A DNA stretch of 64,000 bases from Candidatus Methanomethylicaceae archaeon (lineage in GTDB: Archaea; Thermoproteota; Methanomethylicia; Methanomethylicales; Methanomethylicaceae). The stretch spans positions 10,645 through 74,644 of the forward strand of contig JACTUC010000008.1 of the NCBI GenBank assembly GCA_015660995.1, in the 5' to 3' direction. The notes under the pieces are model-generated. The model did not search any database. It had not been told where the DNA came from and saw nothing but the letters and a program-made list of their open reading frames with translations. The translations under genes were made by a program, and so were the position numbers. Of the stretch, positions 6,754 to 56,273 are shown in pieces; position 1 is the first letter of the stretch; each line of letters opens with the position of its first letter.

Positions 6754-6773
6754 TAAGGGCATGAATTGTTGGC

Positions 6774-7271
6774 TCAGATAGCCCGCGTCCAATTCCAGAT
6801 CTCGTCGCCGACGTAATGGACGTTCTTGATCGCCTTTCCCTTCTTCTTCTGCAGGACCTCGCTCCTTTCCATAATCAGAATGCCCATGGCGAGTCCTTTG
6901 GAATGCTTCTCGTCCACCACTAGGACCAAGTCCCCAACCTGAATGCCCTCTGCAGCAGACCTGATCCCTGGCGCCATGATGTCTGCTCCATTCACGACAA
7001 AAGGCACTGCGCCCATGTCAACAACGACTTTTGGGATCGTGTCAAGAAGCGCCTGAGGCATCGCAAGGGATGGAATCACCTTGCCCTCCTTCTCCATAAG
7101 CACTGGCTTACCATACTGAAGGTATATCTTGTCGCCGCTGGCCAGTTCCACGATCTCGATCTCCTCCTTCTTGTCAATATGGTCGGCTAGAGTAGGACAG
7201 ACCTTCTTCGCCTCCTCAAGAAGGACCTTCAGATCCTTGGAACTCAAGGGGTGTCTCTTCTTTATCAGCAA
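6774..7271 (-). CDS. PUA-domain RNA-binding protein
   Basis: C-terminal VVDMGAVPFVVNGADIMAPGI is a PUA fold signature. About 165 aa, matching the archaeal DUF1947+PUA family. Confidence 0.55.
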   Translation of the reverse strand: MLIKKRHPLSSKDLKVLLEEAKKVCPTLADHIDKKEEIEIVELASGDKIYLQYGKPVLMEKEGKVIPSLAMPQALLDTIPKVVVDMGAVPFVVNGADIMAPGIRSAAEGIQVGDLVLVVDEKHSKGLAMGILIMERSEVLQKKKGKAIKNVHYVGDEIWNWTRAI

Positions 7272-7352
7272 CTTTTCACGATCTCCGATAAACTTAAATA
7301 ACGTCTCTCATAAACCGAGATTGCTAATTAACCTTTACGGCAGGAATAAAAT

Positions 7353-7583
7353 ATGAGCGAGTTCGGCGCAACGGAAATACTGACAGAGTCCTTAGGGTCC
7401 TTTGTGCTCGTGAAGCTGAAGGGCGGAAGGGAAGTTCGAGGAACGATGAAGAGCTTCGACCAGCACCTGAACCTGGTTCTTGAGAACGCTGAGGAACTTA
7501 TAGCGGAGAAGGAGCCCAAGAAGCTGGGAACAATCATTGTCAGGGGCGACAATGTCGTAATAGTTTCCCCGTCGCCAAGGTGA
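7353..7583 (+). CDS. Sm-like archaeal protein (LSm)
   Basis: Sm1/Sm2 motifs ([35 protein letters not shown]). Followed immediately by L37e, the conserved lsm-rpl37e pair. Confidence 0.9.
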
Positions 7584-7588
7584 TATAA

Positions 7589-7765
7589 ATGAAGGGGACA
7601 ACATCATTCGGAAAAAGAAACAGGCAGATCACGCATATCCCCTGCAGGCGGTGCGGCCGCAGGGCCTTCAATGTGCGCAAGAAATTCTGTACGCACTGCG
7701 GGTACGGCAAGACCCCTAAAATGAGAGTTGCTTCGAGGCCCCGTAGATACAGACCCATAAAATGA
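7589..7765 (+). CDS. rpl37e: 50S ribosomal protein L37e
   Basis: Translated by hand as [58 protein letters not shown]. The C4 zinc ribbon is typical of L37e. Too short to appear in the ORF track. Confidence 0.85.
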
Positions 7766-7943
7766 GGGTTTCTTTGAGACCCCATAGGTGCTAATACCTG
7801 TTCATCTGACATTAATTTAAATGACCCGAGATAATTCCCTCGGGGATATATTTACCCTCTTTCAACATCTTTTGGGTCGATGCAGAAGAGGGTAGAATAT
7901 ATATCCAAAGAATCATAAAATTTGGTATTAAAGGGGTTTATTC

Positions 7944-8207
7944 ATGGCAGAACCTGCTCCAAATAGCGAAAAATTGCCAACGAATGAGATGATTAACGTC
8001 TTGGAGTATGTGACAATCTCCAAAAACGAGAGTTGGTGGACCGCCATCGTCCTGGCTGGGGATGCTGGAAGAAAGAAAGTGATGCTATATATGTGGCACA
8101 AAAGCGGCGACAAGTGGTCAAGGAAACAAAAGTTCACCATCCCGCGCAAGACCGACTGGCCACTAATTAGGGACACTGTCGAGAAAATGATGTCTAAAGT
8201 TGATTAA
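7944..8207 (+). CDS. Hypothetical protein
   Basis: 87-aa ORF with upstream inverted repeats. No recognisable motif. Confidence 0.3.
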   Translation: MAEPAPNSEKLPTNEMINVLEYVTISKNESWWTAIVLAGDAGRKKVMLYMWHKSGDKWSRKQKFTIPRKTDWPLIRDTVEKMMSKVD

Positions 8208-8287
8208 AGCCCAAACAACTGAATCCCAAAGGCCCTCTATTGGTACTCAATAACTTTTTAAAAGAGTGTTTCGTCTATTGCACTGAT

Positions 8288-8392
8288 GGGCCGGTAGCTC
8301 AGACTGGCAGAGCGCCCGCTTGGCATTGCGGGCATGCAGCCTCCGCACCAAAGTGCGGGAGGCCACGGGTTCAAATCCCGTCCGGTCCACCA
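8288..8392 (+). tRNA. tRNA-Ala (anticodon GGC) with a 28-nt intron between positions 37/38; CCA encoded
   Basis: Acceptor GGGCCGG/CCGGTCC gives the G3:U70 Ala identity pair, with A73. The D-arm is GCTC-AGACTGGCA-GAGC. Anticodon stem CCCGC/GCGGG only pairs after removing 8326-8353. T-arm is ACGGG-TTCAAAT-CCCGT. Confidence 0.75.
8326..8353 (+). other. Putative tRNA-Ala intron (canonical 37/38 position)
   Basis: TTGCGGGCATGCAGCCTCCGCACCAAAG. Removing it restores a 7-nt anticodon loop TTGGCAT. Contains a hairpin that could contribute to a bulge-helix-bulge. Confidence 0.6.
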
Positions 8393-8543
8393 TCAAACAT
8401 ATGCGGAACAGCCAAATTATTGCTCGCCTCGTCTTCAACAATAGCATCCTATTCCTCTCTTCAAAAAGGAGTGCAAGGCATTTGAAGAAGAAAGACAGAA
8501 ATAGTAATACCTTCCACAGCCAAAAAGTGGGGTATATTCTACT

Positions 8544-10529
8544 ATGCGGCACAAGATCGCAGCATGCCTCATATTCTGCCTTTTGACCATATCTATCATC
8601 GGAAGTACTGTTGCAGCTGCTGATTGGCCCATGTTCCACTATGATTCAAGCCATACGGGCTACACAACCGATGCCGGCCCTCTCACAAATAATGTTCTGT
8701 GGAAATACACCACCGGTGGCACGGTGGAATCCTCTATCGTCATCTCCGGTGGCTATGTTTACGCCCCCTCAGCTGACAATAATGTCTACTGCCTCAACGC
8801 CACGACCGGCCACCAGGTGTGGAACTACACAACCGGTGGTTACGTGTGGGGGCCAGCTATCGCCAACGGCTACGTCTACGTCGGCTCCGACGATCACAAG
8901 GTCTACTGCCTCAGTGCCCAGACCGGCGCCTTGGTGTGGAGCTACTCGACCGGCGGCTACGTGTACACCCCAACCGTCGCCAATGGCTATGTCTATATTG
9001 GTTCAAATGATCGCAATGTTTACTGCCTCAATGCCTCGACTGGCGCCCAGGTGTGGAACTTTACCACTCAAGGTGAAGTGTACGTTCCCTCCGTCTCCGG
9101 CAGCTACGTCTACATAGGCTCTTCAGACAGTAATGTCTACTGCCTCAATGCCAATACGGGTGCCAAGATATGGAGCTATTCGACCGGCAACTATGTATTA
9201 TCAACCCCTGCTGTCTCTGGCAACGGCTACGTCTACGTGGGGGGCTACGATCACAACGTCTACTGCCTCAATGCCTCAACCGGCGCCCAAGTATGGAGTT
9301 ACGCCACAGGCGGTATCATATTCTCCTCCCCAGCCGTCGCTAATAGCTACGTCTACATTGGCTCCGAAGACAACAACGTCTACTGCCTCAATGCCCAAAC
9401 CGGCGCCCAAGTATGGAGCTATTCGACCAGTAGCAAGGTATTATGCTCCCCCGCCGTCTCTGGCAACGGCTACGTCTACGTCGGTTCCGAAGATCACAAG
9501 GTCTACTGCCTCAGTGCCCAGACCGGCACCTTGGTATGGAGCTACACGACCAGCGGTGTAGTGACGTCCGCCCCTGCTCTCTCCGACGGCGTGCTTTACA
9601 TAGGATCCTTCGACATGAATGTATATGCCTTCGGTACCCCCTCTTCGACAAATTCCTCCAATGTTGTAGCGAATGGCTGGGTTCCTTCGCCCACTCCTGC
9701 AGTAGCAGCTATAGTGGTTGCTGTAGCATTGACGGGCGCGGTCTCGTTCCTCTTTTCAATGGTGAGCAACCCTCTGGGCAGTCTCGGGGGTAAAGCAGGT
9801 GAAAAAACGAAGGGCATCCTTCCTGATAACATTAAGTCGTGGCTAGAGGATTTTGTGGAGTCTAGGCATGAAATTAATGTGGAGGCAAAAATTGGGGCTT
9901 CGTATTTGCCTACAGGGCCCGAGATTTTAGCCTATGGTATTGCTATCGTTGCACTGACGCTCGCGTTCTCCTATGCGGAGGTCAATAGCCTCGCGAATAT
10001 ATTTGAAGTTCTCCCTCTTATTTTGGTCACGAGTGTTCTTGTGGTACTGGTCCAGAAGTTCGTCTCGATCGCGCTTATGCGGAAGCTGGGGGTGTGGAGC
10101 GAATACAAGATTTGGCCCCTAGGTCTCGTACTATTTCTTGTAACCACTCTCGCATTCCGGGTTCCTTTTTCATCACCAACCCGTGACGTGGAAGCTTCTC
10201 ACGAGCCTGCTGAACAAGCTCCACCTTCGTCGCTGACCCCTGAGGCGCATTCCTTGTCCAAGCATACTGAACTTTTCGAAGCGATAGTGCCTGCTTCGGA
10301 AATACTAGTAGGAGTACTTTTTGCAGGACTTTTCTTTATCATATTGAAAAGCGGTTTCACCTTGGTGGGCAGTACGGGCTTGGCGATGTGCATCATTGGT
10401 TCCTTCTTTGAATCTCTTCCCATTGAGCCCCTAGACGGCAAAGACATCTACGACCATAGCAAGATGATTTGGGCAGCCATATTCCTAGGAACTCTGATCT
10501 TGTTCGCATTGTGGGTGCTGCTGCTCTAG
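8544..10529 (+). CDS. Secreted PQQ-repeat beta-propeller fused to a polytopic membrane domain resembling an inactive site-2 protease (M50-like)
   Basis: Signal peptide, about 8 PQQ-like blades (repeats of YVY.GS.D..VYCLNA.TG..VW), then 6 or more TM helices. These carry ALMRKLGVWSEYKIWPLG and SLPIEPLDGKDIY, which parallel the S2P HExxH-region and LDG motifs. HExxH is replaced by QKFVS. Confidence 0.75.
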   Translation: MRHKIAACLIFCLLTISIIGSTVAAADWPMFHYDSSHTGYTTDAGPLTNNVLWKYTTGGTVESSIVISGGYVYAPSADNNVYCLNATTGHQVWNYTTGGYVWGPAIANGYVYVGSDDHKVYCLSAQTGALVWSYSTGGYVYTPTVANGYVYIGSNDRNVYCLNASTGAQVWNFTTQGEVYVPSVSGSYVYIGSSDSNVYCLNANTGAKIWSYSTGNYVLSTPAVSGNGYVYVGGYDHNVYCLNASTGAQVWSYATGGIIFSSPAVANSYVYIGSEDNNVYCLNAQTGAQVWSYSTSSKVLCSPAVSGNGYVYVGSEDHKVYCLSAQTGTLVWSYTTSGVVTSAPALSDGVLYIGSFDMNVYAFGTPSSTNSSNVVANGWVPSPTPAVAAIVVAVALTGAVSFLFSMVSNPLGSLGGKAGEKTKGILPDNIKSWLEDFVESRHEINVEAKIGASYLPTGPEILAYGIAIVALTLAFSYAEVNSLANIFEVLPLILVTSVLVVLVQKFVSIALMRKLGVWSEYKIWPLGLVLFLVTTLAFRVPFSSPTRDVEASHEPAEQAPPSSLTPEAHSLSKHTELFEAIVPASEILVGVLFAGLFFIILKSGFTLVGSTGLAMCIIGSFFESLPIEPLDGKDIYDHSKMIWAAIFLGTLILFALWVLLL

Positions 10530-13367: not shown

Positions 13368-14408
13368 TTACAGTAGCAGCAGCCAGATGCCCATTATCAA
13401 CATCAGGACAGCTGAGACTATGCGTATGTACTGCTTCGGAATATTTGGGGATTTGGCGAACCGATAGACCAGTAGCACCACCACCAAAGGAAGCACGAAT
13501 ATGAGATTATAGAGGAGCAGATAACCCAGGATCCCTAGTCCAGTTATTCCGTACTGGGTCAGTAGGGTCAGGGCAAGGAAGTAGGGCCCGCCCGTGCAGG
13601 GGAGCTCGATAGCCGAGATCCCCACACCGACTAGGAATGCAAAATAGGGGGAAGTGGCTGTGTCTATGAGCCTCTTTATGGTTGGCTTGCTCCGGTCAGG
13701 CAGCTTGATGAAAAGGGAAACGAAAGCCAAGCCAATAGCTAGGACCCCAACTACCTTGGTGGTATAGGTCGGCAGGTTAAACTGCTGAAGTATGGTGAAG
13801 AGGCCAAAGCCGATGGCAAGGTAAGAGAGAAAGTTGCCCAAGATGTAGGCGAAACCGGTTTTCCAGACCGACCTCGATGCTGCGGAAAGAGCGACCAATA
13901 ACACTATGAGCACCGTGATCGCGCAGGGGTTGAGCGAGTCCGCAAAGGCCATCCCGAATATTATCCCGAGGGGCGGCGGGCCGACGGGTTTTGAGGGTGT
14001 GCCGTTGCAGGTTGGGCATTGAACTCCAGTGTCATTCAGAAGCAGGGGGGTTAGTTCGCTCTCGATCTGGTCGACACCCACCAAGGTCTGGGTTCCGATA
14101 AAGACCACCGGCCAGTTAGGGCTGGTAATGTTGTGGCAGTTGTAGTACTGAACCATCAGATCGTAGTTCGAGGAGTTGGTGATCTCGAAATCAGTTACGG
14201 TCAAGTTGGGGAATTGTTGCTCCACCTGGAGCATATAGGTTTTAGCCTCTTCGCAGGCGCTGCATCCATTAGCATAGAAGAAGTATATGCACTGCGGCGT
14301 AGTTGTTTGGTTCGCCTGAGGCGCTGCCATGGTAGGGTGTGTAAATACCGCTGACGCCATCAGAATCAGCAACAATATCAGGAGAAGCTTTTTGTGATCC
14401 GCAGCCAC
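13368..14408 (-). CDS. Thioredoxin-like domain fused to DsbD/CcdA-type disulfide transporter
   Basis: Signal peptide, CSAC thioredoxin CxxC, then 6 TM helices with the conserved NPCA and ELPCTGGPY cysteines of the DsbD/CcdA family. Confidence 0.65.
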   Translation of the reverse strand: MAADHKKLLLILLLILMASAVFTHPTMAAPQANQTTTPQCIYFFYANGCSACEEAKTYMLQVEQQFPNLTVTDFEITNSSNYDLMVQYYNCHNITSPNWPVVFIGTQTLVGVDQIESELTPLLLNDTGVQCPTCNGTPSKPVGPPPLGIIFGMAFADSLNPCAITVLIVLLVALSAASRSVWKTGFAYILGNFLSYLAIGFGLFTILQQFNLPTYTTKVVGVLAIGLAFVSLFIKLPDRSKPTIKRLIDTATSPYFAFLVGVGISAIELPCTGGPYFLALTLLTQYGITGLGILGYLLLYNLIFVLPLVVVLLVYRFAKSPNIPKQYIRIVSAVLMLIMGIWLLLL

Positions 14409-25809: not shown

Positions 25810-27030
25810 ATGCAACCTATGGATGGGTATCCTTCGTTGGCGTACGACATAATCGCTCATGAGATGGACAGGCCAACACTCTTTAAGGACGAGTCGAAAC
25901 TCTTCCCGGACCATGTGCCCACGAACCTTGTCCACAGGGAACCCGAACTGAAAGCATTGAGCAGGGTATTCAAGGTGCTGCTGGAGTCCCCGGGCTCCGT
26001 AGCTCAGAAGGTAACGCTCGTGGGCGACGTCGGCGTTGGAAAGACTGCTGTTGCGAAGAGGTTTGGATCCAGCATCGAGTCGCTGGTAAAGGGCAAGGGG
26101 ATCAACCTCCGTTACGTCCACGTCAACTGCTACAAGGACCGCACACTCTTCCTGGTCATAAAGAAGGTTGCACAGCAGATACTCCCGAGCATACCCGACC
26201 GCGGATTCTCGGCCCAGGAGCTCTTCGAGACGCTCTGGAAGATCCTCGAAGACGAGAACATCTACCTGCTACTCGCGCTGGACGAGGCTGACTTCCTTAT
26301 CTCAGCCTCTGGCGAGAAGGACGCGCCCCTCTACTTCCTCTCCCGGGTTGCCGATGAATACCTGAATCGTCCCCAGAGGCTCAGCCTCATCTTGATTACG
26401 AGAAATCTCGAATTCCTCTCGGGTCTGGACAAGAGCGTTCAGAGCAGCCTCCTTCACAACGTGGTGCGCTTCGAGAAGTACACCTCCGAGCAGCTCTTTG
26501 ACATAATCCACGCCAGGGGCATGGATGCTCTCAAGGAGAGCGCCCTTAGCGAGGAGGTACTGGCCATGATCTCGGACATATCCGCGCCACGCGGCGACGC
26601 CAGGTATGCGCTTGAGCTGCTCTGGCGCGCGGGCAAGTACGCCGATGCCGAGGCTGCGGAGAGGATACTTCCCGAGCATGTGAGGAAGGCGCAGCTGGAC
26701 GTCTCACAGTTCCCCATGCACACGGTGCAGGAGCTGCCCCTGCACGAGAGGCTCTTCCTGCTCTCGGTGGCGAAGGTGCTGAAGAGAAACAAATCTGCCT
26801 ATGTAACCATGGGCGAGGTGGAGTCGACCTACCGCGTTCTCTGCGAGAGCAACAGCATAGAGCCTAGGAAGCACACTCAATTCTGGGAGTACCTGCAGAA
26901 CCTGAAGAACCTCGGTATACTATACACCAAGATCTCGGGCGCAGGCTTCAGGGGGAAGACAACGCTGATAGGGCTGCTCAACCTCTCCGTAGAGGCTGTG
27001 GAGCGGGGTCTGAAGGATCTGGAGGGATGA
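25810..27030 (+). CDS. cdc6: Orc1/Cdc6 replication initiator
   Basis: AAA+ Walker A VGDVGVGKTAV, Walker B LLLALDEAD, sensor regions and a C-terminal winged helix. Confidence 0.9.
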   Translation: MQPMDGYPSLAYDIIAHEMDRPTLFKDESKLFPDHVPTNLVHREPELKALSRVFKVLLESPGSVAQKVTLVGDVGVGKTAVAKRFGSSIESLVKGKGINLRYVHVNCYKDRTLFLVIKKVAQQILPSIPDRGFSAQELFETLWKILEDENIYLLLALDEADFLISASGEKDAPLYFLSRVADEYLNRPQRLSLILITRNLEFLSGLDKSVQSSLLHNVVRFEKYTSEQLFDIIHARGMDALKESALSEEVLAMISDISAPRGDARYALELLWRAGKYADAEAAERILPEHVRKAQLDVSQFPMHTVQELPLHERLFLLSVAKVLKRNKSAYVTMGEVESTYRVLCESNSIEPRKHTQFWEYLQNLKNLGILYTKISGAGFRGKTTLIGLLNLSVEAVERGLKDLEG

Positions 27031-27034
27031 AAAG

Positions 27035-27307
27035 ATTTCTGTAGAGGACATATTCTCGTCCAAGGGACGGGTAAAGGTACTGAAGGAGCTTGCCGAGCGT
27101 GGCGAGATGAACATATCTGAGATAACACGGCGCACAAGCTTGAACCACACAACGACCTCTGCGCATCTGAAGAAGCTCTGCGAGCTTGGCATAGTGGAAG
27201 AGAAGAGGTTCGGGCGCATCAGGATATTCAGGTTCATGAAGGAGGACCCGCGAGGATGGGCGATCCAGACCCTCTTCGAGTCCTTCAAAAAGGGGTCGAA
27301 GGCATGA
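27035..27307 (+). CDS. ArsR-like winged-helix transcriptional regulator (start codon uncertain, probably ATT 27035)
   Basis: DIFSSKGRVKVLKELAERGEMNISEITRRTSLNHTTTSAHLKKLCELGIV is an ArsR/HTH_20 pattern. The frame is open from 27014 with no ATG/GTG/TTG before the internal Met at 27107. GGAGG sits at 27021-27025. Confidence 0.5.
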   Translation: MSVEDIFSSKGRVKVLKELAERGEMNISEITRRTSLNHTTTSAHLKKLCELGIVEEKRFGRIRIFRFMKEDPRGWAIQTLFESFKKGSKA

Positions 27308-28321: not shown

Positions 28322-28834
28322 ATGCGAAGTAGAGCCCCCGTGGTTTGCATCGTGGCACCGGGCAGCGGTTACGGGAAGACCGCTCTCATAGACTCATTGC
28401 TGGCGGGCCTAAAACAGCAGGGCATCAAGGCCTGCGTCCTGAAGCATTCAGGCCACGATTTCGAGCCTGACGTTGAAAAGGACACGTGGTTCTTCAGGCA
28501 GGCAGGTGCCATTGGCTCGGCAGTAATAACCGAGGCGGGCCTCGCCTCCTTTTACGTGCCCTGTAGCACCCTCGAGAGCTCCCTCGCCATCCTCGAAGGG
28601 CTCGAGCCAGACATCATCCTCTGCGAGGGCTTCAAGGAGTCGAACCTACCAAAAATACTCTTGCTCAAGGCCGAGGACGAGTTTGGGATAATCCCTTCGC
28701 TCACATCTGTCTTAGCTGTTGTGTATGATAGCGAATACCCTGAATGGGTCAAGGTTCCTGTACTCAAGCAAGCCAAGGAGGTACTGAATTTCCTGCTCGA
28801 TTACCACCGCAGATCTAAGGAGGGGCTGGTCTGA
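28322..28834 (+). CDS. mobB: Molybdopterin-guanine dinucleotide biosynthesis adapter MobB
   Basis: P-loop GSGYGKT plus the LKHSGH motif. Confidence 0.8.
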   Translation: MRSRAPVVCIVAPGSGYGKTALIDSLLAGLKQQGIKACVLKHSGHDFEPDVEKDTWFFRQAGAIGSAVITEAGLASFYVPCSTLESSLAILEGLEPDIILCEGFKESNLPKILLLKAEDEFGIIPSLTSVLAVVYDSEYPEWVKVPVLKQAKEVLNFLLDYHRRSKEGLV

Positions 28835-29742
28835 TCGATCCATACGGCAGGGCAATCAAGGGCATAAGGATCAGCCTCACCCAGAGGTGCAACCTCAACT
28901 GCGTCTATTGCCATCATGAGGGCGAGGCCGCGGTCTCGACGGAGATGACAACGGTCGAGGTACTTCGCACAGTGAAAATTGCTGCTGAGCTGGGTGTTAT
29001 AAGGGTCAAGTATACGGGGGGAGAGCCCCTCCTCAGGAGCGACCTGATCGATATCATCAGGGGAACAACCTCAATGAAGCTGGAGGACGTCGCGCTCACT
29101 ACTAATGGCTCGCTCCTTAAGGCAAGTGCAAAGGGGCTGTCCGAAGCTGGCCTCAGGCGCCTCAATATTTCGCTCCCCAGCATGGCACCGGACGTCTACT
29201 CCACGCTGACCGGGGGGGAACTTGGGGATGCCCTAGACGGCATAAGGGAAGCCAGGAACTTGGGCATGGAGATCAAACTGAACATGGTAATAATGAAGGG
29301 TATTAATGCAGGCGAGGTAGACCGCTTCATGGGGCTTGCGCGGGACTTGGGCGGTAGCCTCCAGCTCATTGAGCTTGAGGACCTCAGCCTTGAACCGGGA
29401 TTTTTCAGCAAGTACCATCTGGACATCTCGGACATCGAGGAAGAGATAGTGCATATGGCCCAGCGGACAGTAAAAAGGGAGGACATGAACCACCGGGCCA
29501 GGTATCTTGTGGACGGTCTGCAGGTGGAGGTTGTTCGGCCCATTAACAACCCGAACTTCTGCAGTAGATGCACCCGCCTGAGGGTCACAAGCGACGGGAA
29601 GCTCAAGCCCTGCCTTATGCGTTCGGACGACCTGATCGACCTGCTGAAGCCGATGAGGTGCGGATCTTCCGATGCTGAGCTGAAAGGGCTCTTCCTAAAG
29701 GCGGTCTCCCTCAGGTCTCCTTACTACCAGCAACGCGGCTGA
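28834..29742 (+). CDS. moaA: GTP 3',8-cyclase MoaA (radical SAM); start codon uncertain (ATC 28834 or CTG 28831)
   Basis: The radical-SAM CNLNCVYC motif lies upstream of the first ATG (28945). The frame is open from 28819 with no ATG/GTG/TTG before the motif. GGAGG sits at 28819-28823. Confidence 0.75.
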   Translation: MDPYGRAIKGIRISLTQRCNLNCVYCHHEGEAAVSTEMTTVEVLRTVKIAAELGVIRVKYTGGEPLLRSDLIDIIRGTTSMKLEDVALTTNGSLLKASAKGLSEAGLRRLNISLPSMAPDVYSTLTGGELGDALDGIREARNLGMEIKLNMVIMKGINAGEVDRFMGLARDLGGSLQLIELEDLSLEPGFFSKYHLDISDIEEEIVHMAQRTVKREDMNHRARYLVDGLQVEVVRPINNPNFCSRCTRLRVTSDGKLKPCLMRSDDLIDLLKPMRCGSSDAELKGLFLKAVSLRSPYYQQRG

Positions 29743-35445: not shown

Positions 35446-35459
35446 TCGGAGGGCCCAGT

Positions 35460-37667
35460 ATTAGGGTAGACGACCTTCCCATCCGCGACGAAGCCAAGAG
35501 GCTCTACCGCGAGATGGGCATTACCGATCTTTACCCTCCCCAGGAAGAAGCTGTGAAGTCAGGGGTTCTGGAAGGCAAGAACCTTGTCCTGGCCATCCCC
35601 ACAGCCTCTGGAAAGACGATGGTGGCCGAGCTATGCGCCCTCAAGCACGTGATGGAGCGCCGGGGGAAGGCCCTTTACCTTGTTCCACTCAAGGCCCTTG
35701 CCTCAGAGAAGTACGAAGATTTCAAGAAGTTCAACAAAATAGGGCTGAGGGTGATACTCTCCACGGGCGACTTTGACACCCTGGATCCGACGCTCGGAAG
35801 GTATGACATAATTATCGCAACAAATGAGAAGGCGGACTCGATCTTCCGGCACAAGCCTGCTTGGATCAACAGCCTTACACTGCTAGTCGTTGACGAGATT
35901 CATCTCTTGGGCGATGGGTCTAGGGGTCCTACGCTGGAAGCTGTCATGACTAGGTTCCGCCTCCTCAATCCTAAAGCGCAGATACTGGCCCTCAGCGCGA
36001 CAATCAGCAACGCCGACGAGATGGCTGGCTGGCTGGGTGCCCAGCTTGTCACGAGCGATTGGCGACCAGTTCCCCTCATGGAGGGTGTCTATTTCCACGA
36101 ATCTGTAATGTTCAGTGACGGCCAGAACAAGAAGGTGGAGGGCGTCGAGACTGACCCCGTGGCACGCTTGGCAGTGGACGTGATAAAGTCTGGAGGCCAG
36201 ATGCTCGTCTTCGCTGCGAGCAGGCTCTCTTCCACCTCCCTGGCCAAGCGGATGGAAACGCCCGTAAGAAACCTGCTCAAGGGGAGCGAGGAGAAGAAGC
36301 TGCTTGAGCTCTCGTCCAGGATACTAAAGATGGGGGAGCGCACCCGCATATCCAACAAGCTTGCCAAGGCTGTCTCCAATGGTGTCGCCTTCCACCACGC
36401 GGGCCTGACCTACGAACAGAGGAAAGCGGTCGAGGACGCTTTCCGATCGTTTTTGGTCAAGGTAATATGCGCCACGCCTACTTTGGCCGCAGGCGTCAAC
36501 CTACCCGCGAGGCGGGTACTCATCTACGATTACAGGCGCTACGAGGCAGGCCTCGGCCAATCGAACATACCCGTGCTGGAGGAGAAGCAGATGGCTGGCA
36601 GGGCTGGCAGACCCAAGTACGACAAGGAGGGCCAGGCAATAATCCTTGCAAGGAGCGAAGAGGAACGCGACTTTCTGCTGGAGCAGTACGTGCTCGCCAA
36701 GCCCGAGAAGGTCTGGTCGAAGCTGGGCAACGCCTCCTCGTTGAGGTCCCACATACTGGCAGCAATCTCCATGGGGCTGGCATGCTCCCAGGAGGGTGTC
36801 TTCGACTTCCTTGAGAGATCCTTCTGCTCCTACCAGTACGGTATAAACTCATTCAAGGGCGCGATCCTCGAATCGCTGGATATGCTTACGAGCGAAGGCA
36901 TGGTGAAGTCTGAGGGGAAAGATCTGCTCCCGACCCCGCTTGGCAGGAGAGTGGCAGAGCTGTACATAGACCCGAAGTCCGCCGTTATCCTGAAGAACGG
37001 GCTCAAGATCCGCCGCTCTGGTGTGCCTGCCATAGGCTACCTCACGCTGATCTGCCACACCCCTGACATGCCCAAGCTCTACATCCGCAGAAAGGAGCTC
37101 GAGGAGCTGAAGGCGTTCCTTGAGTCCAACTGCGACCTCTTCCTTTACGACCTTCCCCAGGATGAAGGCTTTGACTATGAGATGCTCCTCACGGAAGTGA
37201 AGACGTCCCTCCTCATCAAGGACTGGATCGACGAGCTGCCTGAGGACGCGATAGTGGAGAGGTTCGACGTAGGATCCGGGGACATTTACGCCTACGTCGA
37301 GTCGGCAAAGTGGCTGGTCCACTCCGCCCACGAGCTTGCGAAGCTGATGGGGTACCCAGAGTCTATGAAGCCGCTCTTGGACTTGAACGTGAGGATCGAG
37401 AACGGCGTGAAGGAGGAGCTCCTGCAGCTTATATCGCTGAAGGGCGTAGGCAGGGTTAGGGCCAGAGCCCTCTTCTCGGCAGGCTACAAGGGCATCGATG
37501 ACCTGAAGAGAGCTTCCCCAACGGAACTTGGCAGGATCCCAACATTGGGGCCGGAGACCATACGATCGATTAAGGAGCAGGTGGGTGGTAGCGTCACCAA
37601 GGAGGAGTGGTCTATGGTTAAGTCCAGATCCGGCACCAAGCAGTCGTCCATGGACGACTACGGATAA
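35460..37667 (+). CDS. hel308: Hel308/Hjm Ski2-like DNA helicase (start probably ATT 35460)
   Basis: AIPTASGKT, DEIH and the C-terminal HhH domain. Residues upstream of the first ATG (RVDDLPIRDEAKRLYRE) align with the conserved Hel308 N-terminus. GGAGG sits at 35448-35452. Confidence 0.9.
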   Translation: MRVDDLPIRDEAKRLYREMGITDLYPPQEEAVKSGVLEGKNLVLAIPTASGKTMVAELCALKHVMERRGKALYLVPLKALASEKYEDFKKFNKIGLRVILSTGDFDTLDPTLGRYDIIIATNEKADSIFRHKPAWINSLTLLVVDEIHLLGDGSRGPTLEAVMTRFRLLNPKAQILALSATISNADEMAGWLGAQLVTSDWRPVPLMEGVYFHESVMFSDGQNKKVEGVETDPVARLAVDVIKSGGQMLVFAASRLSSTSLAKRMETPVRNLLKGSEEKKLLELSSRILKMGERTRISNKLAKAVSNGVAFHHAGLTYEQRKAVEDAFRSFLVKVICATPTLAAGVNLPARRVLIYDYRRYEAGLGQSNIPVLEEKQMAGRAGRPKYDKEGQAIILARSEEERDFLLEQYVLAKPEKVWSKLGNASSLRSHILAAISMGLACSQEGVFDFLERSFCSYQYGINSFKGAILESLDMLTSEGMVKSEGKDLLPTPLGRRVAELYIDPKSAVILKNGLKIRRSGVPAIGYLTLICHTPDMPKLYIRRKELEELKAFLESNCDLFLYDLPQDEGFDYEMLLTEVKTSLLIKDWIDELPEDAIVERFDVGSGDIYAYVESAKWLVHSAHELAKLMGYPESMKPLLDLNVRIENGVKEELLQLISLKGVGRVRARALFSAGYKGIDDLKRASPTELGRIPTLGPETIRSIKEQVGGSVTKEEWSMVKSRSGTKQSSMDDYG

Positions 37668-41855: not shown

Positions 41856-42974
41856 CTATACTTTCCTCGGTAATCCGAAAGTCAGGATAAACCCGATCAT
41901 TGCTACAGCGGCCAGAAAAATAAGAGTGTAATAGGGAAGAGATATGATCTGACCTACTGTAACAAGAACTAGTATCGCGAAAATGTGTCCTATGAGCATT
42001 ATGAAGCCTGTGATTTGCCCCTGGGACTTATGTTGGATGAATTTCTCGATCCATTCAAAAATTATCGGCCAAGCACTCAGAAGGAAAAAACCGTCCAGAA
42101 TGAGCCATCCCGAAACCCATACAACGTTTTGCCAGATCGCTATTGCTAAAAAAGTGAGTGCTGTGTACAACGATGCTGCCATCAGAATATAGGTTCGTTT
42201 GTTGTGTTTTGATACAATTTGAGGAATAATTGCTGAACCAATAATTCCAGAAATGATCACGATCCCAAGGAGAGAACCAGCAACATCTCCAAGCCCAAAT
42301 TGTGAAAAGATGGGCTGCAACCAACTTGATAAAGAATCAAATATCCCTAGTCCAACAGCAAGTATTCCTCCAAGGATCCATAACTGCTTTTCCTTGAGAA
42401 TCTCTTTTAAACCTCTTGAATAAAATGCAACTTGAATTTGGTCGGAAGAGGGAATCTCCTCCGCTCTAAAAAGAACTGCTAGGCTCCATATGGTCGCCAC
42501 TGCAGTTATTATTGCAATTACAGTTTCAAGGTAAATTATTCCTCCAAGCTGATAGAGTGGATAACCTATGGCCATAGCCACTACGATTCCGGTGTAAATA
42601 CCAATGCTCGATATCGATACTGCGGTTACCCTCTGTTTATCTATAAAATACTTCCGCGCAAAAAGCGGAATTGATGAGAGAATAAACGGCTGTGCAATGG
42701 CACCAATAATCTGGGTGCTGAAGATGAACCCAAAAGATAAGGGATCCAGAAGCCTTCCTATCCCGGCAATTGCATTAAGTACTATTCCAATCAATAATGC
42801 TTTTTTGAAGAATGAATCCAATGCTCTGCCCGATGGTATGGCTAATAGTATATATACAATAGGATACATGACGGCTAAGTAACCTACATACAACACATTT
42901 ACATTAAAAACTGTAGCCATGTAGGTTTCTACAGGAGAAAACGTTACCCAAATTGCCTGGGACGATAAAACCAA
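41856..42974 (-). CDS. MFS-like transporter
   Basis: 10-12 TM helices with an MFS-like loop PSGRALDSF. Downstream of the decarboxylase on the same strand. Confidence 0.55.
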   Translation of the reverse strand: MVLSSQAIWVTFSPVETYMATVFNVNVLYVGYLAVMYPIVYILLAIPSGRALDSFFKKALLIGIVLNAIAGIGRLLDPLSFGFIFSTQIIGAIAQPFILSSIPLFARKYFIDKQRVTAVSISSIGIYTGIVVAMAIGYPLYQLGGIIYLETVIAIITAVATIWSLAVLFRAEEIPSSDQIQVAFYSRGLKEILKEKQLWILGGILAVGLGIFDSLSSWLQPIFSQFGLGDVAGSLLGIVIISGIIGSAIIPQIVSKHNKRTYILMAASLYTALTFLAIAIWQNVVWVSGWLILDGFFLLSAWPIIFEWIEKFIQHKSQGQITGFIMLIGHIFAILVLVTVGQIISLPYYTLIFLAAVAMIGFILTFGLPRKV

Positions 42975-45588: not shown

Positions 45589-46533
45589 TTGTATATTTTG
45601 GTGGAGTTGTACGTCGGCGCAGGGGGATGGGCTTACTTCATAGTTCCAGATGAGAGCCCTTTAAAGGCCTACTCGAAGACTTTCAACTTCGTAGAAGTGA
45701 ACTCGACTTTTTACGAAATCCCTCAACCCGGTGCTGCAGACGCTTGGAGGAGGGCAGTGCCGCAGTCATTCAGGTTCGCAGTGAGGGCCAATAAGGCGAT
45801 AACCCACAACGATCCATTCGCGCCTTCGCCGGAATCTGAAGACGCACTGCAGGCTACTTTGGAGGTATGCCAAGCGCTAAAGGCAGACGTGCTCCACTTC
45901 CAGACCCCCCAATCATTCAGGATTGGCGATATCGAAGCAAAGCGGATAGGCGATTTCTTCAGTACACTGAATGCGGGCAGCATGCTCTTGGCACTGGAGG
46001 TGAGGGGCGCTTCAGGCGGGGATCTTCCCCATAGCCTAGTAAAGGCAATGCAGGACAATTATATTATCCACTGCGTCGACCTACTGAAAGGCGAAGCGCC
46101 GGCATATGCCGCCGACACACTCTACACCAGAACCTTCGGCAAGGGTGATCACAACATATACCAACCCGATGATGGTGAGCTCAAGGCGGTACATATGACT
46201 GCTTCCATGTACACGAAAGCATACGTGGCCTCCCACAGCGCTAAAATGTACTCAGACGCTGCAAGGCTGATCACATTTGGCAAGACCGGCAAATTCCCCA
46301 TGGTAACCAAGTGCACAGGGCTGAATTCGCTGACTTCTGTCTTGGAAGAGGACGCCAAGTTCCCAGCGACTAAGGACGAGCTGATAAAGAGGCAGGGATG
46401 GAAGCTCTATGACGCATCGGAGGAAGTGAGGGTCAGGGCCGAGGAGCCGCTGAGTAAGCTGCCAGACAGGACTTATGGCAATGTAAATGACCTCTTGCAA
46501 GAACTACATTATCAGGGAGGCGGGGCAGTCTGA
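45589..46533 (+). CDS. DUF72 (UPF0759) family protein, divergent paralogue
   Basis: VGAGGWAY...NSTFYEIP aligns to the DUF72 N-terminal GTSGWSY...STFY motif of the next gene. Confidence 0.6.
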   Translation: MYILVELYVGAGGWAYFIVPDESPLKAYSKTFNFVEVNSTFYEIPQPGAADAWRRAVPQSFRFAVRANKAITHNDPFAPSPESEDALQATLEVCQALKADVLHFQTPQSFRIGDIEAKRIGDFFSTLNAGSMLLALEVRGASGGDLPHSLVKAMQDNYIIHCVDLLKGEAPAYAADTLYTRTFGKGDHNIYQPDDGELKAVHMTASMYTKAYVASHSAKMYSDAARLITFGKTGKFPMVTKCTGLNSLTSVLEEDAKFPATKDELIKRQGWKLYDASEEVRVRAEEPLSKLPDRTYGNVNDLLQELHYQGGGAV

Positions 46534-46547
46534 CTGGCAGGATCCTT

Positions 46548-47399
46548 TTGGGCACGTCCGGCTGGAGCTACAAAGAGTGGGTGGGCCCATTCTATGAGAA
46601 TGACGAGGAGAGTAAGCTCAGAGCCTACACCGAAGTCTTCGGGACGGCAGAGATCGATTCCACATTCTACGCCTACCCTGCAAAGGGTCTTGTCATGGGT
46701 TGGAAGATGAATACGCCCGAAAAGTTTCTTTTTACGGCAAAGCTCCCAAAGGTCATAACGCATGAGAAGATGCTTGATCTCTCGCAGGGTGCGGATCAGG
46801 ACCTGATGAGGTTCGTTGATCTGATGGCGCCTCTTGCCGGGGCTAATAAGCTTGGGTGCCTTCTGATACAGCTCCCGCCAAGCTTCAGCTATGACCCCGG
46901 CAGGCTGGAAGCCTTCTTCAAGGTTATGCCCAAGGGGGTCAGGTTCGCCGCAGAGTTCCGCAACAAATCATGGATGAGAGATGAGACGTGGGAGCTCCTT
47001 AAGGGATACAACGTGGCCTATGTCAATGTGGACGAGCCCCTGCTCCCTCCTGAGGTGCACATAACAGCTGACTTTGCCTACTTCAGGTGGCACGGGCATG
47101 GGAAGAATGTCTGGTTCGACTACAGCTACAGCAAGGAAGAGTTGGAGCCGTGGGTGCTAAAGGTGAAGGAGGTTACCGGAAAAGTGAAGGAGGTCTACGG
47201 CTACTTCAACAACCATTTCCATGGTTATGCAGTTGAGAACTGTTTGCAGGTGATGGAAATGCTAGGGGTAGCGGGTGATGCCCAGAGGGACGCAAAAGAA
47301 AAGATCGAGTCATACAGAGTTTCCTCCGAAAATATCAAAGACAAGACCAAGCATAAGGGGAAAGCTGGGGGAACTCTGGACGTTTTCATGAAAAAATGA
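46548..47399 (+). CDS. DUF72 (UPF0759, YecE-like) family protein
   Basis: Canonical MGTSGWSYKEWVGPFY N-terminus and TIM-barrel-like length. Confidence 0.75.
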   Translation: MGTSGWSYKEWVGPFYENDEESKLRAYTEVFGTAEIDSTFYAYPAKGLVMGWKMNTPEKFLFTAKLPKVITHEKMLDLSQGADQDLMRFVDLMAPLAGANKLGCLLIQLPPSFSYDPGRLEAFFKVMPKGVRFAAEFRNKSWMRDETWELLKGYNVAYVNVDEPLLPPEVHITADFAYFRWHGHGKNVWFDYSYSKEELEPWVLKVKEVTGKVKEVYGYFNNHFHGYAVENCLQVMEMLGVAGDAQRDAKEKIESYRVSSENIKDKTKHKGKAGGTLDVFMKK

Positions 47400-47474: not shown

Positions 47475-48083
47475 TTATAGGGTTTTTTCAAGGGTTTCTA
47501 GGTTGAAACTTGTGTTGGTGCAGCCATTTCTTATCAATGGGATGGCCTGTCCTGCAAAGCCCATCTGCCTAAGGCCTTCTGCCCCAAGCTGCACCTCCTG
47601 CCCACAGGCGACACCAACTATTCCATCATATTTGTCTTTCTTCAAGATATTGAGGATGCAAGAGCTACCCGGCAATACGTAAACATTGTACCCATTCTTC
47701 TTGCCCATTTTGGTTGCCCTGTTTATGAGGCAGTCTTCTGAACACTGGCCACAGATATAGGATGGTATATCTGGGTTGAAGGTGGACTTGCACCTGCTGT
47801 CCATATACTTTCTTGAGCAGTGCGGCAGTAATAGCGCCCTATTTTTTGTCCCCTCAAAGCGTTTCCGCTCTGAAAGATTCTGTGAATATACATCTACCAA
47901 GTCCTCAACCAATTGGAGCGTCTCGGGCTCATCCAAACCGGTGATCTTGGTAAGGTTATGGGCTAGGCGTTGCGTTTTCATATCAAATCTTCTTCGAAGC
48001 TTATTCTCGCCGGCAACTTTAGCAAGCTCAATGAAAAATGATTTTGGGATACTGGAGAGATCAAAACTGAACTTGTAAGGCAT
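47475..48083 (-). CDS. DUF116-like cysteine-rich protein
   Basis: LLLPHCSRKY...C...CGQCSEDC cysteine pattern, characteristic of the archaeal DUF116 family. Confidence 0.45.
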   Translation of the reverse strand: MPYKFSFDLSSIPKSFFIELAKVAGENKLRRRFDMKTQRLAHNLTKITGLDEPETLQLVEDLVDVYSQNLSERKRFEGTKNRALLLPHCSRKYMDSRCKSTFNPDIPSYICGQCSEDCLINRATKMGKKNGYNVYVLPGSSCILNILKKDKYDGIVGVACGQEVQLGAEGLRQMGFAGQAIPLIRNGCTNTSFNLETLEKTL

Positions 48084-48887: not shown

Positions 48888-49322
48888 CCAGATATTGAAA
48901 ATCCTTGTATTTTGGCATTTCTATCTTCGAATTTATATCGATCTTATCTGTCCGAAGAATTTTGCCTCTTCTTATGAAGATAATCTAAAACCTAAATCCA
49001 CACACTATCTCTAATTCAACAATTCTTACTCCTACTCTCTCCTGTGCAATTGCTCTGCATCTATCCCCGAGGGCAAAATTTTAATAACCCTAGAAGTGCT
49101 TATCAACTCGATTGAGATGTACCCGTTCGTTTTGCTCACGGACATAATTGCTGTTATTGCAATTATCCTATTGGCGGTTACCACGCTCCTCATCACCTTT
49201 GACAGAGAATAGCGCCGACTATCGTCGGTGGCGCTTTTGAAATTTTTCAACATAAGAATAGGGAGGATCAGTCATAATTAATATAAGCCTCGAAATGACC
49301 TCCTCCTGATATAAATGGAGGA

Positions 49323-52300
49323 TTGCAACTGGTGTCTCGTTCCAAATTTGACTCATTCAACTCATTCATCAGACGCTTCCATCGGCAGATAATAATTGTC
49401 TGGGTCGTGGCGCTTGTGTTCTCGGCTGCGGTGATACCTAGCTTCTTCTCTGGCGTCTCCTATAACATCACTACCCTGGCCAGCTCAGGAGCCCCCCAGA
49501 ACACAGAGTCTCAGATCGCCCAGAACATATTGGACGCACAGTTTCCCTCCTCTAACGGTAGCGGAGACAATAGCATCATACTGGTTATCCAGAACCCGAC
49601 CCCCGGCCTATACTCGGATGCCGTGAAGAACGCTGTCCTCCAGCTCGAACGCACCGTAGGATCCGATCCCAGCCAGGTCAACTATACAGGTGCATCGAGC
49701 ATCTATTCGACCGAGAGCGATCTTCTGAACTCCTCGCTGCCTGGTTTCATCCAGGGCGTGGCGTCCATGGACTCCAACATCACCGCGGTCAACCAGGCCG
49801 TCTTCTCCTTGGAGCAGAACCTTTCGGCCCTCAGCTCCGGCCTCTTCCAGCTGGCGCAGGGGATAAGCCAGACATCTCAGCTGGTCTACGGCATACCCAC
49901 TGCCTTCGTTGGGATCTGGGGTGGAATAGTAGGCGCTGGAGAGACGAACATGACCATCGCCAACCAGGAGGCCAACGCGACCATCTTCGCCCAGACGGGC
50001 AACTTCGGTGGCGACCAGCAGTCAGTGGGATACTATACCGCCTTCTTCGCCTATTGGAGCGCGAGCTTCCAGACAGCCCCCACCCTCACGCCGCTCCAGA
50101 GGGAGGCAGCTGCCATCAGCGGAGCAGTCACCCAGCTAACCTCCAGCCCCTACCTGGACAATGCAACAAAGGTCCTGATCCTAAGCGTGGCCAACGGGCT
50201 CAACGTAACCAGCTGGAACCAGGCCAGCGCCCTAGGTAACCTTACGGTAGAAACATTCGCATCTCAGGTGCCGAGCAGCCTAACCTCGTCCCTTGGCGTT
50301 ACGCCCAGCGACCTCGTGGCCAGCCTCTACAGCCTAGGTCCTTCTCCGTCAGTCGCGGCCCTCACCAACCTTACCATCCCCCTCATCGCGAACGCCTTCG
50401 GCGGCTCCTCCGCGCCCATAGCTGGTTTCTCGATCACTGACTTGGTCGCAGCCTCCTCCTCCCTTGGGCCTTCGCCCAGCCAGAGCGCTGTTTGGAACCT
50501 GGCGGCAGAGTTCTTCTCAAATACGACGGCGAGCGCCCTTGAGGCATCGCCCCTCTTTACGGTCAATGCGACCTCCCTCAGTGGCCTCCTCTCGGGCCTC
50601 AGTCCCTCCAGCTCTGCTGCCCAGCTAGCGAGCGCAATAGACGCCGTAGTATATAATGAGAGCTTCTCCAACTATCCCCTTGTACTCTCAAGGTCCCTGA
50701 CTCAGAACTTCGTGGGGACAGAGAATGACACCATGATTGTCGTGTTTAGTTACTCTTCAACTCTTAGTCCCGACACCCTCGCAGGGTTCCAGCAGGACGT
50801 GAAGAGCTCAGACCTCTCATCAATGGCGACGACCTACGTCACCGGCGGGGCTGTGATCAGCCATGATTTTGAAGACGCCTTCAGCCCCGTCATTGGAGCG
50901 ATCTCGAGCGTCGGAATCGTTGCCTCCATAATTATCGCCATAATCCTCTTCGGGGCACCCCTTGCGGCCATCCTTCCGCTGCTTCTCGGGGGCATCTCCA
51001 TAGTTATCGGCTACGCAGCCATCTACCTTGGCGTGGTGGTAGCCGGAAGCGGCAAGATAACCTTCCTCACACCTACACTGGCTACGCTCATCATGCTGGG
51101 CCTAGCCGTTGACTACTCTGTCCTTCAGCTCCGAAGGATGAAGGAGGAGAGGGCCAAGGGAAAGTCAAAGGAGGAGAGCGTGGCCACATCGGTCAGATGG
51201 TCCGGCCAGGCCGTGCTTACTGCAGGGATTACCGTCGTCGTAGCCTACGTCATCCTGGCGGTGGTGAACGTGCCCATATTCAACGACGTCGGCGTAGCCA
51301 TAGCCCTGGGGGTCTCCATCCTTCTTCTGGCGTCGGTGACGCTGCTTCCGTCCCTTGAGCTGCTACTTGGGGACCGCCTCTTCTGGCCTCGCCTAAAGGT
51401 TAACAGTCACGAATCAAAGCCTGGCCGCCTAGCAAGGGTATCCGATGCTACCCTCAAGAGAAAGGTGGCAGTCACGGTGGTGATATCGCTCTTCGCTGTC
51501 TGCGCGGTCGCAGCTGTGGCCAGCACCCCCACGGGGCTCGACATTCTGAAGCTCATCCCGAACACCCAGAGCAACCAGGGCCTGACGGTCATGACGAACA
51601 GCCTGGGCGGTGGAACCATCTCCCCCACATCGATTCTGGTCACAATGCCCTCCGCCATAGTCTACGGAGACAACCAGTTTAACCAGACGCTACTGAACCA
51701 GATCGAGCTCATATCGTCCAAGGTAGCTGGCTCCTCAGGCGTGGTTAGCGTAACGGGCCCCACCAGGCCCTATGGATCTTCATTCAATTTCTCGTCCATA
51801 GGGGAGATGCCTGAGCCCATCCTCTCCCAGTACCTAGACGGCATGCTCTCCTACATAGGAAAGGACAACACCACAGCGCTCATATCCGTCGGATTCAATT
51901 CTCCCATGATGAGCGCCCAGTCCGTCGCTTCACTGGATAAATTAGAGTCCCAAGTGAAGTCCACATCCCTCATTAATGGGGTCGTTGTGCATTATGGCGG
52001 AGAGGCTTCCCAGACGAAGGATAATGAGCAGTTCATAAATGGGCTGATACCGGAGATCTTGATCATCCTCTCCATAGCGGTCTACCTGATCCTGTTCTTC
52101 CAACTAAGGTCCGCCTTTACGCCCCTCAGGCTTATCTTCACCATCCTCTGCAGCGCGGCCTTCTCTCTGGCCCTGCTTGACTTCACCTTTACTTACATAC
52201 TGAAGCTGCCCGTGCTCAACTTCGTGGCACTCTTCGTGATAGTGACCATGCTGGGCGTCGGCATTGACTACGACATCTTCTATGTTACGAGAATACGAGA

Positions 52301-55532: not shown

Positions 55533-56273
55533 TCATTTAGGAAGGCGGAAGATGTAGACCCCCCAGCCCAAGACACCCCTCTCCCACCGAAGATAGTATT
55601 CCTTCTCCCTCCCCTTCCTCTCCATCAGCTCTGCAAGGTCGGGATCGTCAGGTTTTGCTTTGGAGTATTCGTTCACGGCATTCCACTGGAGCGTCTCGTA
55701 ATTGTCCCAGTCGTCGAGGCTGCTCTCCATGGCATAGACACAGTTGAGACTATGCTCCTCCCCGATAGCGATATTCCCGCCAAATCCACTGGCGTAGTCT
55801 TCCTTTTTTTGTGAGGTCAGTCTGAGATACTCCGGATCGGGCTCTTTCGACCAAAATGGTTCGCCTGTCACTATGAGTCCCCAAGGGACGACCATGCTCA
55901 GCAGTGCCTTCAGCGTTCTTGCATAGCCTCCGTAGATAAAACTGGCGCCAAGGCATATTGCGATGTCGAACGGAGCTTCAGGCTTATATTGAGAGCCATC
56001 CATGAGGAGGAACTTTAGGCCCGACCCAGGTACCCTCTTTCTCTGCTTTTCAAGACATTCTTCGATGGAGTAGGGGGATATGTCCACGCCCATGCCAGCA
56101 ATATTATAAAGCTCTTCTAGCCTGATGAGAGTCTCACCCTTGCCGCATCCCATATCCAGTACCCTCCCCCCTGGGCTTAGCAGTCTGCACATCCGATCAA
56201 ACTTTTCTCGGAGAAGTGGATTGCATATCAAATGGTGTCGATGCGTGATGTCATAATATTTCCAGGTGTCCAT
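55533..56273 (-). CDS. Class I SAM-dependent methyltransferase
   Basis: VLDMGCGKGE (motif I), GVDISPY (motif II), LLMDGSQY. Confidence 0.75.
   Translation of the reverse strand: MDTWKYYDITHRHHLICNPLLREKFDRMCRLLSPGGRVLDMGCGKGETLIRLEELYNIAGMGVDISPYSIEECLEKQRKRVPGSGLKFLLMDGSQYKPEAPFDIAICLGASFIYGGYARTLKALLSMVVPWGLIVTGEPFWSKEPDPEYLRLTSQKKEDYASGFGGNIAIGEEHSLNCVYAMESSLDDWDNYETLQWNAVNEYSKAKPDDPDLAELMERKGREKEYYLRWERGVLGWGVYIFRLPK

Follow-up and report, generated by a model that had tools for sequence, protein, structure and literature searches.

A probable CUG start codon for moaA behind a strong Shine-Dalgarno-like sequence in a Methanomethylicia archaeon

Where does translation of moaA, the gene for a predicted GTP 3',8-cyclase, begin in a Candidatus Methanomethylicaceae archaeon whose moaA frame has no canonical start codon ahead of an essential motif? 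The stretch of DNA studied here, called the window, is 64,000 nucleotides (nt) long and spans positions 10,645 to 74,644 of the forward strand of contig JACTUC010000008.1 (NCBI assembly GCA_015660995.1). Coordinates below are those of the window. The moaA frame is open from 28819, directly after a TAA at 28816-28818, and holds no ATG, GTG or TTG from 28819 to 28944. The radical S-adenosylmethionine (SAM) cluster motif lies inside that segment. An initial annotation had placed this motif, CNLNCVYC at 28888-28911, upstream of the first in-frame ATG at 28945, with all coordinates correct, and had proposed a non-canonical AUC or CUG start after a GGAGG. That proposal is supported, and orthologue alignment favours the CUG at 28831. 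Judging from sequence comparison, moaA would be a functional gene translated from the near-cognate CUG at 28831-28833, with a probability of roughly 0.7.

The junction of moaA with mobB, the cistron upstream, has the following parts. Related loci carry L numbers here and homologous proteins P numbers; PGAP is the Prokaryotic Genome Annotation Pipeline.

28322-28834, plus strand: mobB, the upstream cistron, 170 amino acids (Pfam MobB, E 2.4e-23; translation)
28816-28818, plus strand: TAA closing the moaA frame upstream, also in L081-L090 and L095-L097
28819-28825, plus strand: Shine-Dalgarno-like GGAGGGG, kept in sister lineages with 95% and 86% identical MoaA
28831-28833, plus strand: CTG, most likely the moaA initiation codon, in a CTGA overlap with the mobB stop (orthologue starts aligned; PGAP start)
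28832-28834, plus strand: TGA, the mobB stop
28834-28836, plus strand: ATC, alternative near-cognate start in a TGATC-type one-base overlap (2 of 118 homologues start there)
28945-28947, plus strand: ATG, the first canonical in-frame moaA start, used by Prodigal-type callers

The two genes are co-directional, and moaA lies in the -1 frame relative to mobB. Read in the mobB frame, the junction is AGA TCT AAG GAG GGG CTG GTC TGA. Read in the moaA frame, it is TAA GGA GGG GCT GGT CTG ATC GAT CCA TAC GGC AGG. The mobB stop shares two bases with the CTG, which gives a 4-nt stop/start overlap, CTGA, at 28831-28834, and one base with the ATC at 28834. The putative moaA Shine-Dalgarno sequence (SD) sits within the last 16 nt of mobB. 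Its GGAGG core at 28819-28823 ends 7 nt short of the CTG and 10 nt short of the ATC. This succession of GGAGG, CTG and ATC, with the ATC overlapping the mobB stop, is confirmed as the initial annotation had read it.

What would be lost by starting at the ATG becomes clear from the protein:

28831-29742, plus strand: moaA coding sequence (CDS), 303 amino acids, predicted GTP 3',8-cyclase (Pfam Radical_SAM and Mob_synth_C; PDB 1TV7)
28888-28911, plus strand: CNLNCVYC, the radical-SAM [4Fe-4S] CxxxCxxC motif
29560-29613, plus strand: C-terminal CxxCx13C second-cluster motif, CSRCTRLRVTSDGKLKPC

Both Pfam matches are strong (Radical_SAM E 4.7e-28, Mob_synth_C E 4.9e-22), and the Staphylococcus aureus MoaA (1TV7_A) aligns over query residues 3-299 with E 5.1e-41. 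With both domains, both Cys motifs and a full-length match to a solved MoaA, the predicted protein is a complete MoaA. The Prodigal-type call from ATG 28945 has 265 amino acids and loses the cluster motif; this version is stored as P0121, on 21 contigs.

Which codon would serve as the start can be read from relatives. The outgroups that keep mobB and moaA as separate genes (L001-L003 and L094) all have a canonical start at the codon aligned with the window CTG, in a 4-nt overlap with the mobB stop:

L001 junction, codon aligned with the window CTG: TTGA (ggTTGAta)
L002 junction, codon aligned with the window CTG: GTGA (aaGTGAtc)
L003 junction, codon aligned with the window CTG: ATGA (agATGAtc)
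L094 junction, codon aligned with the window CTG: ATGA (gaATGAaa)
Window junction: CTGA (gtCTGAtc)

Nearly all Methanomethylicia MoaA proteins are 302-303 amino acids long and begin M/L/V-I/K-D-P. Of the 118 best motif-bearing homologues, 41 have 19 residues ahead of the first Cys, as a start at the CTG would give, against 2 with 18 residues, as from the ATC. At the canonical SD-led genes of the window the SD spacing is 5-10 nt, and the CTG falls inside this range. The start was placed at CTG 28831 because orthologue starts align there and because the GGAGG spacing is 7 nt. PGAP already begins the moaA CDS at this codon (303 amino acids). A separate observation concerns P0164, a MoaA homologue of 286 amino acids on a 547-kb contig. 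It is called with just 6 residues ahead of the first Cys (MSLTQRCNL...), and its lineage may also have a missed non-canonical moaA start.

Two sister lineages were recovered, L095-L097 with 95% identical MoaA and L098-L100 with 86% identical MoaA. The former has the identical TAA-GGAGGGG-CTGATC junction; the latter also keeps GGAGGGG-N5-CTGATC. Comparison of the window with L095, both without a canonical moaA start, gives a moaA synonymous divergence (dS) of 0.134 and a non-synonymous divergence (dN) of 0.023, for a ratio omega of 0.17 (binomial p 1.5e-7). Across the 37 codons from the CTG up to the first ATG, this comparison has 3 synonymous changes to 1 non-synonymous. For the same segment against L098 the count is 7 to 3 (p 1.4e-3). 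Pooling the pre-ATG segments of moaA and of two further genes described below, for a winged helix-turn-helix (wHTH) protein and for Hel308, gives 9 to 1 (p 1.4e-5). By this substitution pattern moaA is under purifying selection between lineages without a canonical start. A MoaA lacking CxxxCxxC is unable to bind the radical-SAM cluster (PDB 1TV8 family) and is non-functional. Purifying selection, together with the need for the N-terminal cluster, argues for translation from upstream of 28888.

Some points weigh against a CUG start. No published measurement of CUG initiation efficiency in archaea was found. In L098-L100 (10001-10022) an in-frame ATG (ATG GAA) stands six codons upstream of the CTG, where the window has ATC TAA; no SD precedes this ATG. 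The CTG of these loci may be an ordinary Leu codon. Because of that upstream ATG, the CUG-only state is documented just to the split between the window and the 95% lineage, at a dS of about 0.13. Moreover, all three lineages keep both the CTG and the ATC next to it, so that comparison within the clade cannot tell the two apart. Initiation at AUC 28834-28836 would give a product beginning Met-Asp-Pro-Tyr-Gly-Arg, and its TGATC one-base overlap would be analogous to the common TGATG. AUC is a near-cognate codon with an activity in Escherichia coli similar to that of CUG (10.1101/063800), the homologues P0151 and P0159 begin at the ATC-aligned residue, and a 10-nt spacing is still inside the window range. 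It is also at the edge of that range, however, and in all outgroups the canonical start stands at the CTG position, one codon further upstream, with ATA, ATC or AAA as second codon. The 41 homologues against 2 point the same way, as does the second DUF72 gene discussed below, which has the CTGA design without a neighbouring ATY codon. An AUC start is thus unlikely. As to whether the junction is real, the source is a metagenome-assembled genome (MAG) and the junction contains a run of four Gs, which would fit a sequencing or assembly error that created the TAA or destroyed an ATG or TTG. But NCBI GCA_049514975.1 contig JBEKUN010000002.1 matches the window exactly, and the exact mobB protein is present on at least 23 contigs. 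Ten of these, assembled independently in different runs and pipelines, were compared: five from Logan runs, two from JGI metagenomes, two from ENA assemblies and one from an NCBI MAG. The 51-nt junction is the same in 10 of 10, and over 4-6 kb the contigs have 0-1 mismatches. Because these ten are identical and sister lineages agree, including three contigs of the 95% lineage, an error or an indel in the G run was rejected, and the chance of one is negligible. The initial annotation had itself raised such an error at 28816-28818; the TAA is there in the ten assemblies and in the 95% lineage.

A genuine junction might still belong to a moaA that is effectively dead, or that yields only the truncated product from ATG 28945, its start lost and its open reading frame (ORF) not yet decayed. 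The missing canonical start and the shortened calls would fit this. So would the extreme rarity of the switch itself: AUG-to-CUG switches number 2, and AUG-to-AUU switches 1, among 61,358 AUG starts in close genome triplets (Belinky et al., PMC5622118), rates which are a rough yardstick here since divergences in the window clade are larger. Against it, the ORF is uninterrupted, both cluster motifs are present, the omega of 0.17 comes from two lineages neither of which has a canonical start, and the pre-ATG codons are kept at the amino-acid level, with mostly synonymous changes. The operon partners moaC, moaB and mobB are intact as well (Pfam). A dead moaA is highly improbable. The other way to do without a start codon is a MobB-MoaA fusion, as in the fused ORF of Methanosuratincola, made through a -1 slip on G GGG (28822-28825) or through insertion of a G in the four-G run during transcription. 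Here moaA does lie in the -1 frame, and a P-site GGG at 28823-28825 slipping to 28822-28824 re-pairs perfectly to give ...SKEG-AGLIDPYGR. MobB-MoaA is also a single in-frame ORF of 428-472 amino acids in L004, L006-L009, P0163, P0165 and P0173-P0181; among the loci compared, only these five are fused. But the window has no X XXY YYZ slippery heptamer, just the tetramer, and just 14 nt separate TAA and TGA. A run of four Gs is too short for known transcriptional slippage. An RNA hairpin hiding the SD and CTG (28819-28831 with about 28870-28882) was considered both as frameshift stimulator and as coupling device, and was rejected: its minimum free energy is no better than that of shuffled sequence (z -0.9), and CUGG to CCAG in L098, of the 86% lineage, breaks two pairs with no compensation. 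The nearest outgroups (L001-L003, L094) keep separate genes with an NTGA overlap and canonical starts, which makes separate translation the ancestral state of the branch. No continuous ORF across MobB and MoaA is present in the window, given that the frames differ and that the TAA intervenes. For the same reason simple mobB read-through or in-frame fusion, which the initial annotation had allowed for, cannot join the two. Very little weight is left for a fusion made by slippage.

If the CUG start of moaA is accepted, it does not stand alone. The initial annotation had seen the same pattern at 27035 and 35460. Both turn out to be ATT after GGAGGG, borne out by orthologue alignment and conservation in the sister lineages, and a second CTG case can be added:

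27035-27307, plus strand: ArsR-type wHTH gene, putative start ATT 27035 after GGAGGG 27021-27026 (GGAGG 9 nt upstream), placed by orthologue alignment
35460-37667, plus strand: Hel308 helicase gene, putative start ATT 35460 after GGAGGG 35448-35453 (GGAGG 7 nt upstream), placed by homologue starts
46530-47399, plus strand: second DUF72 paralogue, probable start CTG 46530, with GGAGG 46516-46520 9 nt upstream

The wHTH frame (27014-27307) has no canonical start before codon 25, and PGAP picks an ATC at 27017, within the 3' end of cdc6. The ATT aligns with TTG in L001 and L002 or with ATG in L003 and L006-L008, and both ATT and SD are kept in the 95% and 86% groups. The Hel308 ATT is the first-residue position in 86 of 120 homologues, and is kept in both sister groups, and in L094 as well. 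PGAP and Prodigal both start Hel308 at ATG 35514, at a loss of 18 conserved residues. CTG 35442, in a CTGA overlap with the MCM stop, is an alternative Hel308 start; L094 has ATGA there.

The CTG of the second DUF72 gene overlaps, as CTGA, the stop of the DUF72 paralogue ahead of it. The annotated start, TTG 46548, is 27 nt away from the SD and leaves a single residue ahead of the conserved GTSGW, while 116 of 119 DUF72 homologues have at least 6 residues before this motif. Several relatives begin at the CTG-aligned residue, for example P0254 with MTGKILLGTSGW where the window has (CTG)TGRILLGTSGW. The junction is kept in the 96% and 88% relatives; conservation was seen in L101 and L102. This GGAGG-N9-CTGA, with homologue starts at the aligned residue, independently supports CUG initiation in this organism.

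How common such starts are was assessed gene by gene on PGAP coordinates, as a window-wide scan for GGAGG plus any codon is too noisy, GGAGG being common inside genes. PGAP starts for 60 window genes are 42 ATG, 9 TTG, 7 GTG, 1 ATC and 1 CTG. Near-cognate starts are proposed for about 4 of 62 window genes (moaA, wHTH, Hel308 and the second DUF72), each after GGAGG and each conserved across three lineages. Ten window genes are GGAGG-led (starts at 4146, 21871, 22130, 24738, 27035, 27256, 28831, 35460, 46530 and 49332); read by eye, their starts are 3 GTG, 1 TTG, 2 ATT, 2 CTG and 2 ATG. Genes without an SD, which are probably leaderless, mostly start with ATG.

No further non-canonical PGAP starts were found among 24 genes in the 20 kb flanking the window. 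No combination of SD and near-cognate codon was found at the other ORFs with long open upstream frames (12648, 16276, 32059, 37724, 41856-42974, 47475-47981, 55533-56273, 57214, 59682, 61032-61499 and 61617-62354), whose upstream translations look non-coding. At 13368-14360, ATA codons after GGAGG lie in a TATA-like stretch.

It is tempting to read this as a habit of the clade. The peat Methanomethylicia clade, with its three species-level lineages, may routinely initiate at CUG or AUU on SD-led internal cistrons, often with overlapping stop and start, in at least 4 of about 62 window genes and each time derived from a canonical outgroup start. This wider claim is tentative, at somewhat less than even odds. 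If it holds, start-codon discrimination would be relaxed in SD-dependent initiation or reinitiation of this archaeal lineage, and standard gene callers would systematically truncate proteins of the clade.

A mechanism can be sketched. Initiator Met-tRNA would be set on the CUG, despite the mismatch at its first position, either by ribosomes that end mobB at the UGA or by small subunits that the SD draws in. The strong SD and termination-reinitiation coupling would offset the weak codon. The product would be the 303-amino-acid MoaA with N-terminus Met-Ile-Asp-Pro-Tyr-Gly-Arg, at a level that is probably low and coupled or matched to that of MobB. No fewer than three further SD-led internal cistrons of the window (AUU, AUU and CUG) would follow the same logic.

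The ingredients are not new. In E. coli, initiation at CUG, AUU, AUC and AUA reaches about 1-2% of that at AUG, with N-terminal Met, and near-cognate starts have been confirmed in just two cases genome-wide (10.1101/063800). Stronger SDs go with non-AUG starts (PMC5622118). Termination-reinitiation couples overlapping gene pairs in archaea, and an SD within the first gene of the pair frequently assists (Huber et al. 2019, PMC6728339); experiments in Haloferax and E. coli have demonstrated such coupling (PMC6728339). Near-cognate starts and NTGA coupling are thus both already known, and the CUG start of moaA is already in the GenBank annotation. A single such moaA start is of a rare but known kind; the clustering of these starts is more interesting. 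Nothing specific was found in the literature on start-codon usage in Methanomethylicia or on CUG and AUU starts in archaea, and no published account was found of conserved CUG or AUU starts clustering behind strong SDs in one archaeal clade.

There are practical consequences. Prodigal-style calls, as used by JGI, ENA and Logan, cut the radical-SAM motif from MoaA and shorten the wHTH protein, Hel308 and one DUF72 protein. Metabolic reconstructions and protein databases take over these wrong N-termini. When close prokaryotic genomes are compared, a canonical start has given way to CUG or AUU at a few in 10^5 starts (PMC5622118). If true, four conserved cases within 64 kb of one archaeal lineage, each with a strong SD ahead of it and two or three at CTGA overlaps, would form a natural test system. 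One question for it is how far SD pairing and termination-reinitiation can replace start-codon identity in archaea. The other is whether weak starts help to set the ratio in which coupled genes are expressed.

The surroundings of moaA are otherwise regular. The local gene order, by Pfam, is cdc6/orc1, ArsR-type wHTH, moaC, moaB, mobB, moaA, and it is syntenic in relatives. The closest MoaA relatives are from Methanomethylicia/Verstraetearchaeota MAGs, with 69% identity for L001, 60% for Ca. Methanomethylicus mesodigestus and 55-57% for Methanosuratincola.

The moaC start (27256-27307) is ambiguous between two canonical codons. ATG 27256 lies 10 nt after a GGAGG and implies a 52-nt overlap with the wHTH gene; ATG 27304, the PGAP choice, forms an ATGA overlap with the wHTH stop. 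The start of an MMPL gene (49317-49334) is likewise ambiguous: GGAGG is followed after 7 nt by CTG 49329 and then by the annotated GTG 49332.

Two tRNA genes in the window contain introns. One, at 8288-8389 with an intron of about 30 nt, was found by Rfam and missed by ARAGORN; by eye it is a tRNA-Ala (anticodon GGC, G3:U70). The MCM of L094, a 75%-identity relative, has 1204 amino acids (6390-10004) and contains an intein with Intein_splicing and LAGLIDADG domains. The window MCM has 690 amino acids and no intein.

Set beside known systems, the window MoaA resembles that of S. aureus (PDB 1TV7/1TV8) in its Radical_SAM and Mob_synth_C domains, its N-terminal CxxxCxxC and its C-terminal CxxCx13C; in moaA only the start codon differs. 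The window protein ends in ...QQRG. Bacterial MoaA ends in a Gly-Gly tail.

The Methanosuratincola fusion ORFs (P0178 with 472 amino acids; L006-L009) share gene order and junction residue with the window, where in contrast the genes are in different frames, a TAA stands in the moaA frame and there is no fused ORF. The junction codon of fused ORFs is CTG in L004, L008 and L009, and ATG in some others. Continuous mobB-moaA ORFs, with MobB, Radical_SAM and Mob_synth_C domains and the junction near locus position 3000, were seen in Methanosuratincola and in one hot-spring MAG.

The AUU starts of infC and pcnB in E. coli are like that of the window moaA in being AUG near-cognates that have no canonical alternative, are conserved in relatives and are compensated by a strong SD. 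The window differs in coming from an archaeon (Methanomethylicia), in the codon, which is CUG, and in having several such genes per 64 kb. Unlike infC, moaA in the window shows no sign of autoregulation.

A further known system is ATGA coupling (PMC6728339). The text of that paper has 0 occurrences of GTGA, TTGA or CTGA overlaps; the window overlap is CTGA rather than ATGA, GTGA or TTGA, and its putative coupling is read from anatomy. What the two share is the co-directional 4-nt overlap with the SD inside the 3' end of the upstream gene, and this coupling pattern is typical of Crenarchaeota-type archaea, in which SDs are reserved for internal cistrons (PMC6728339).

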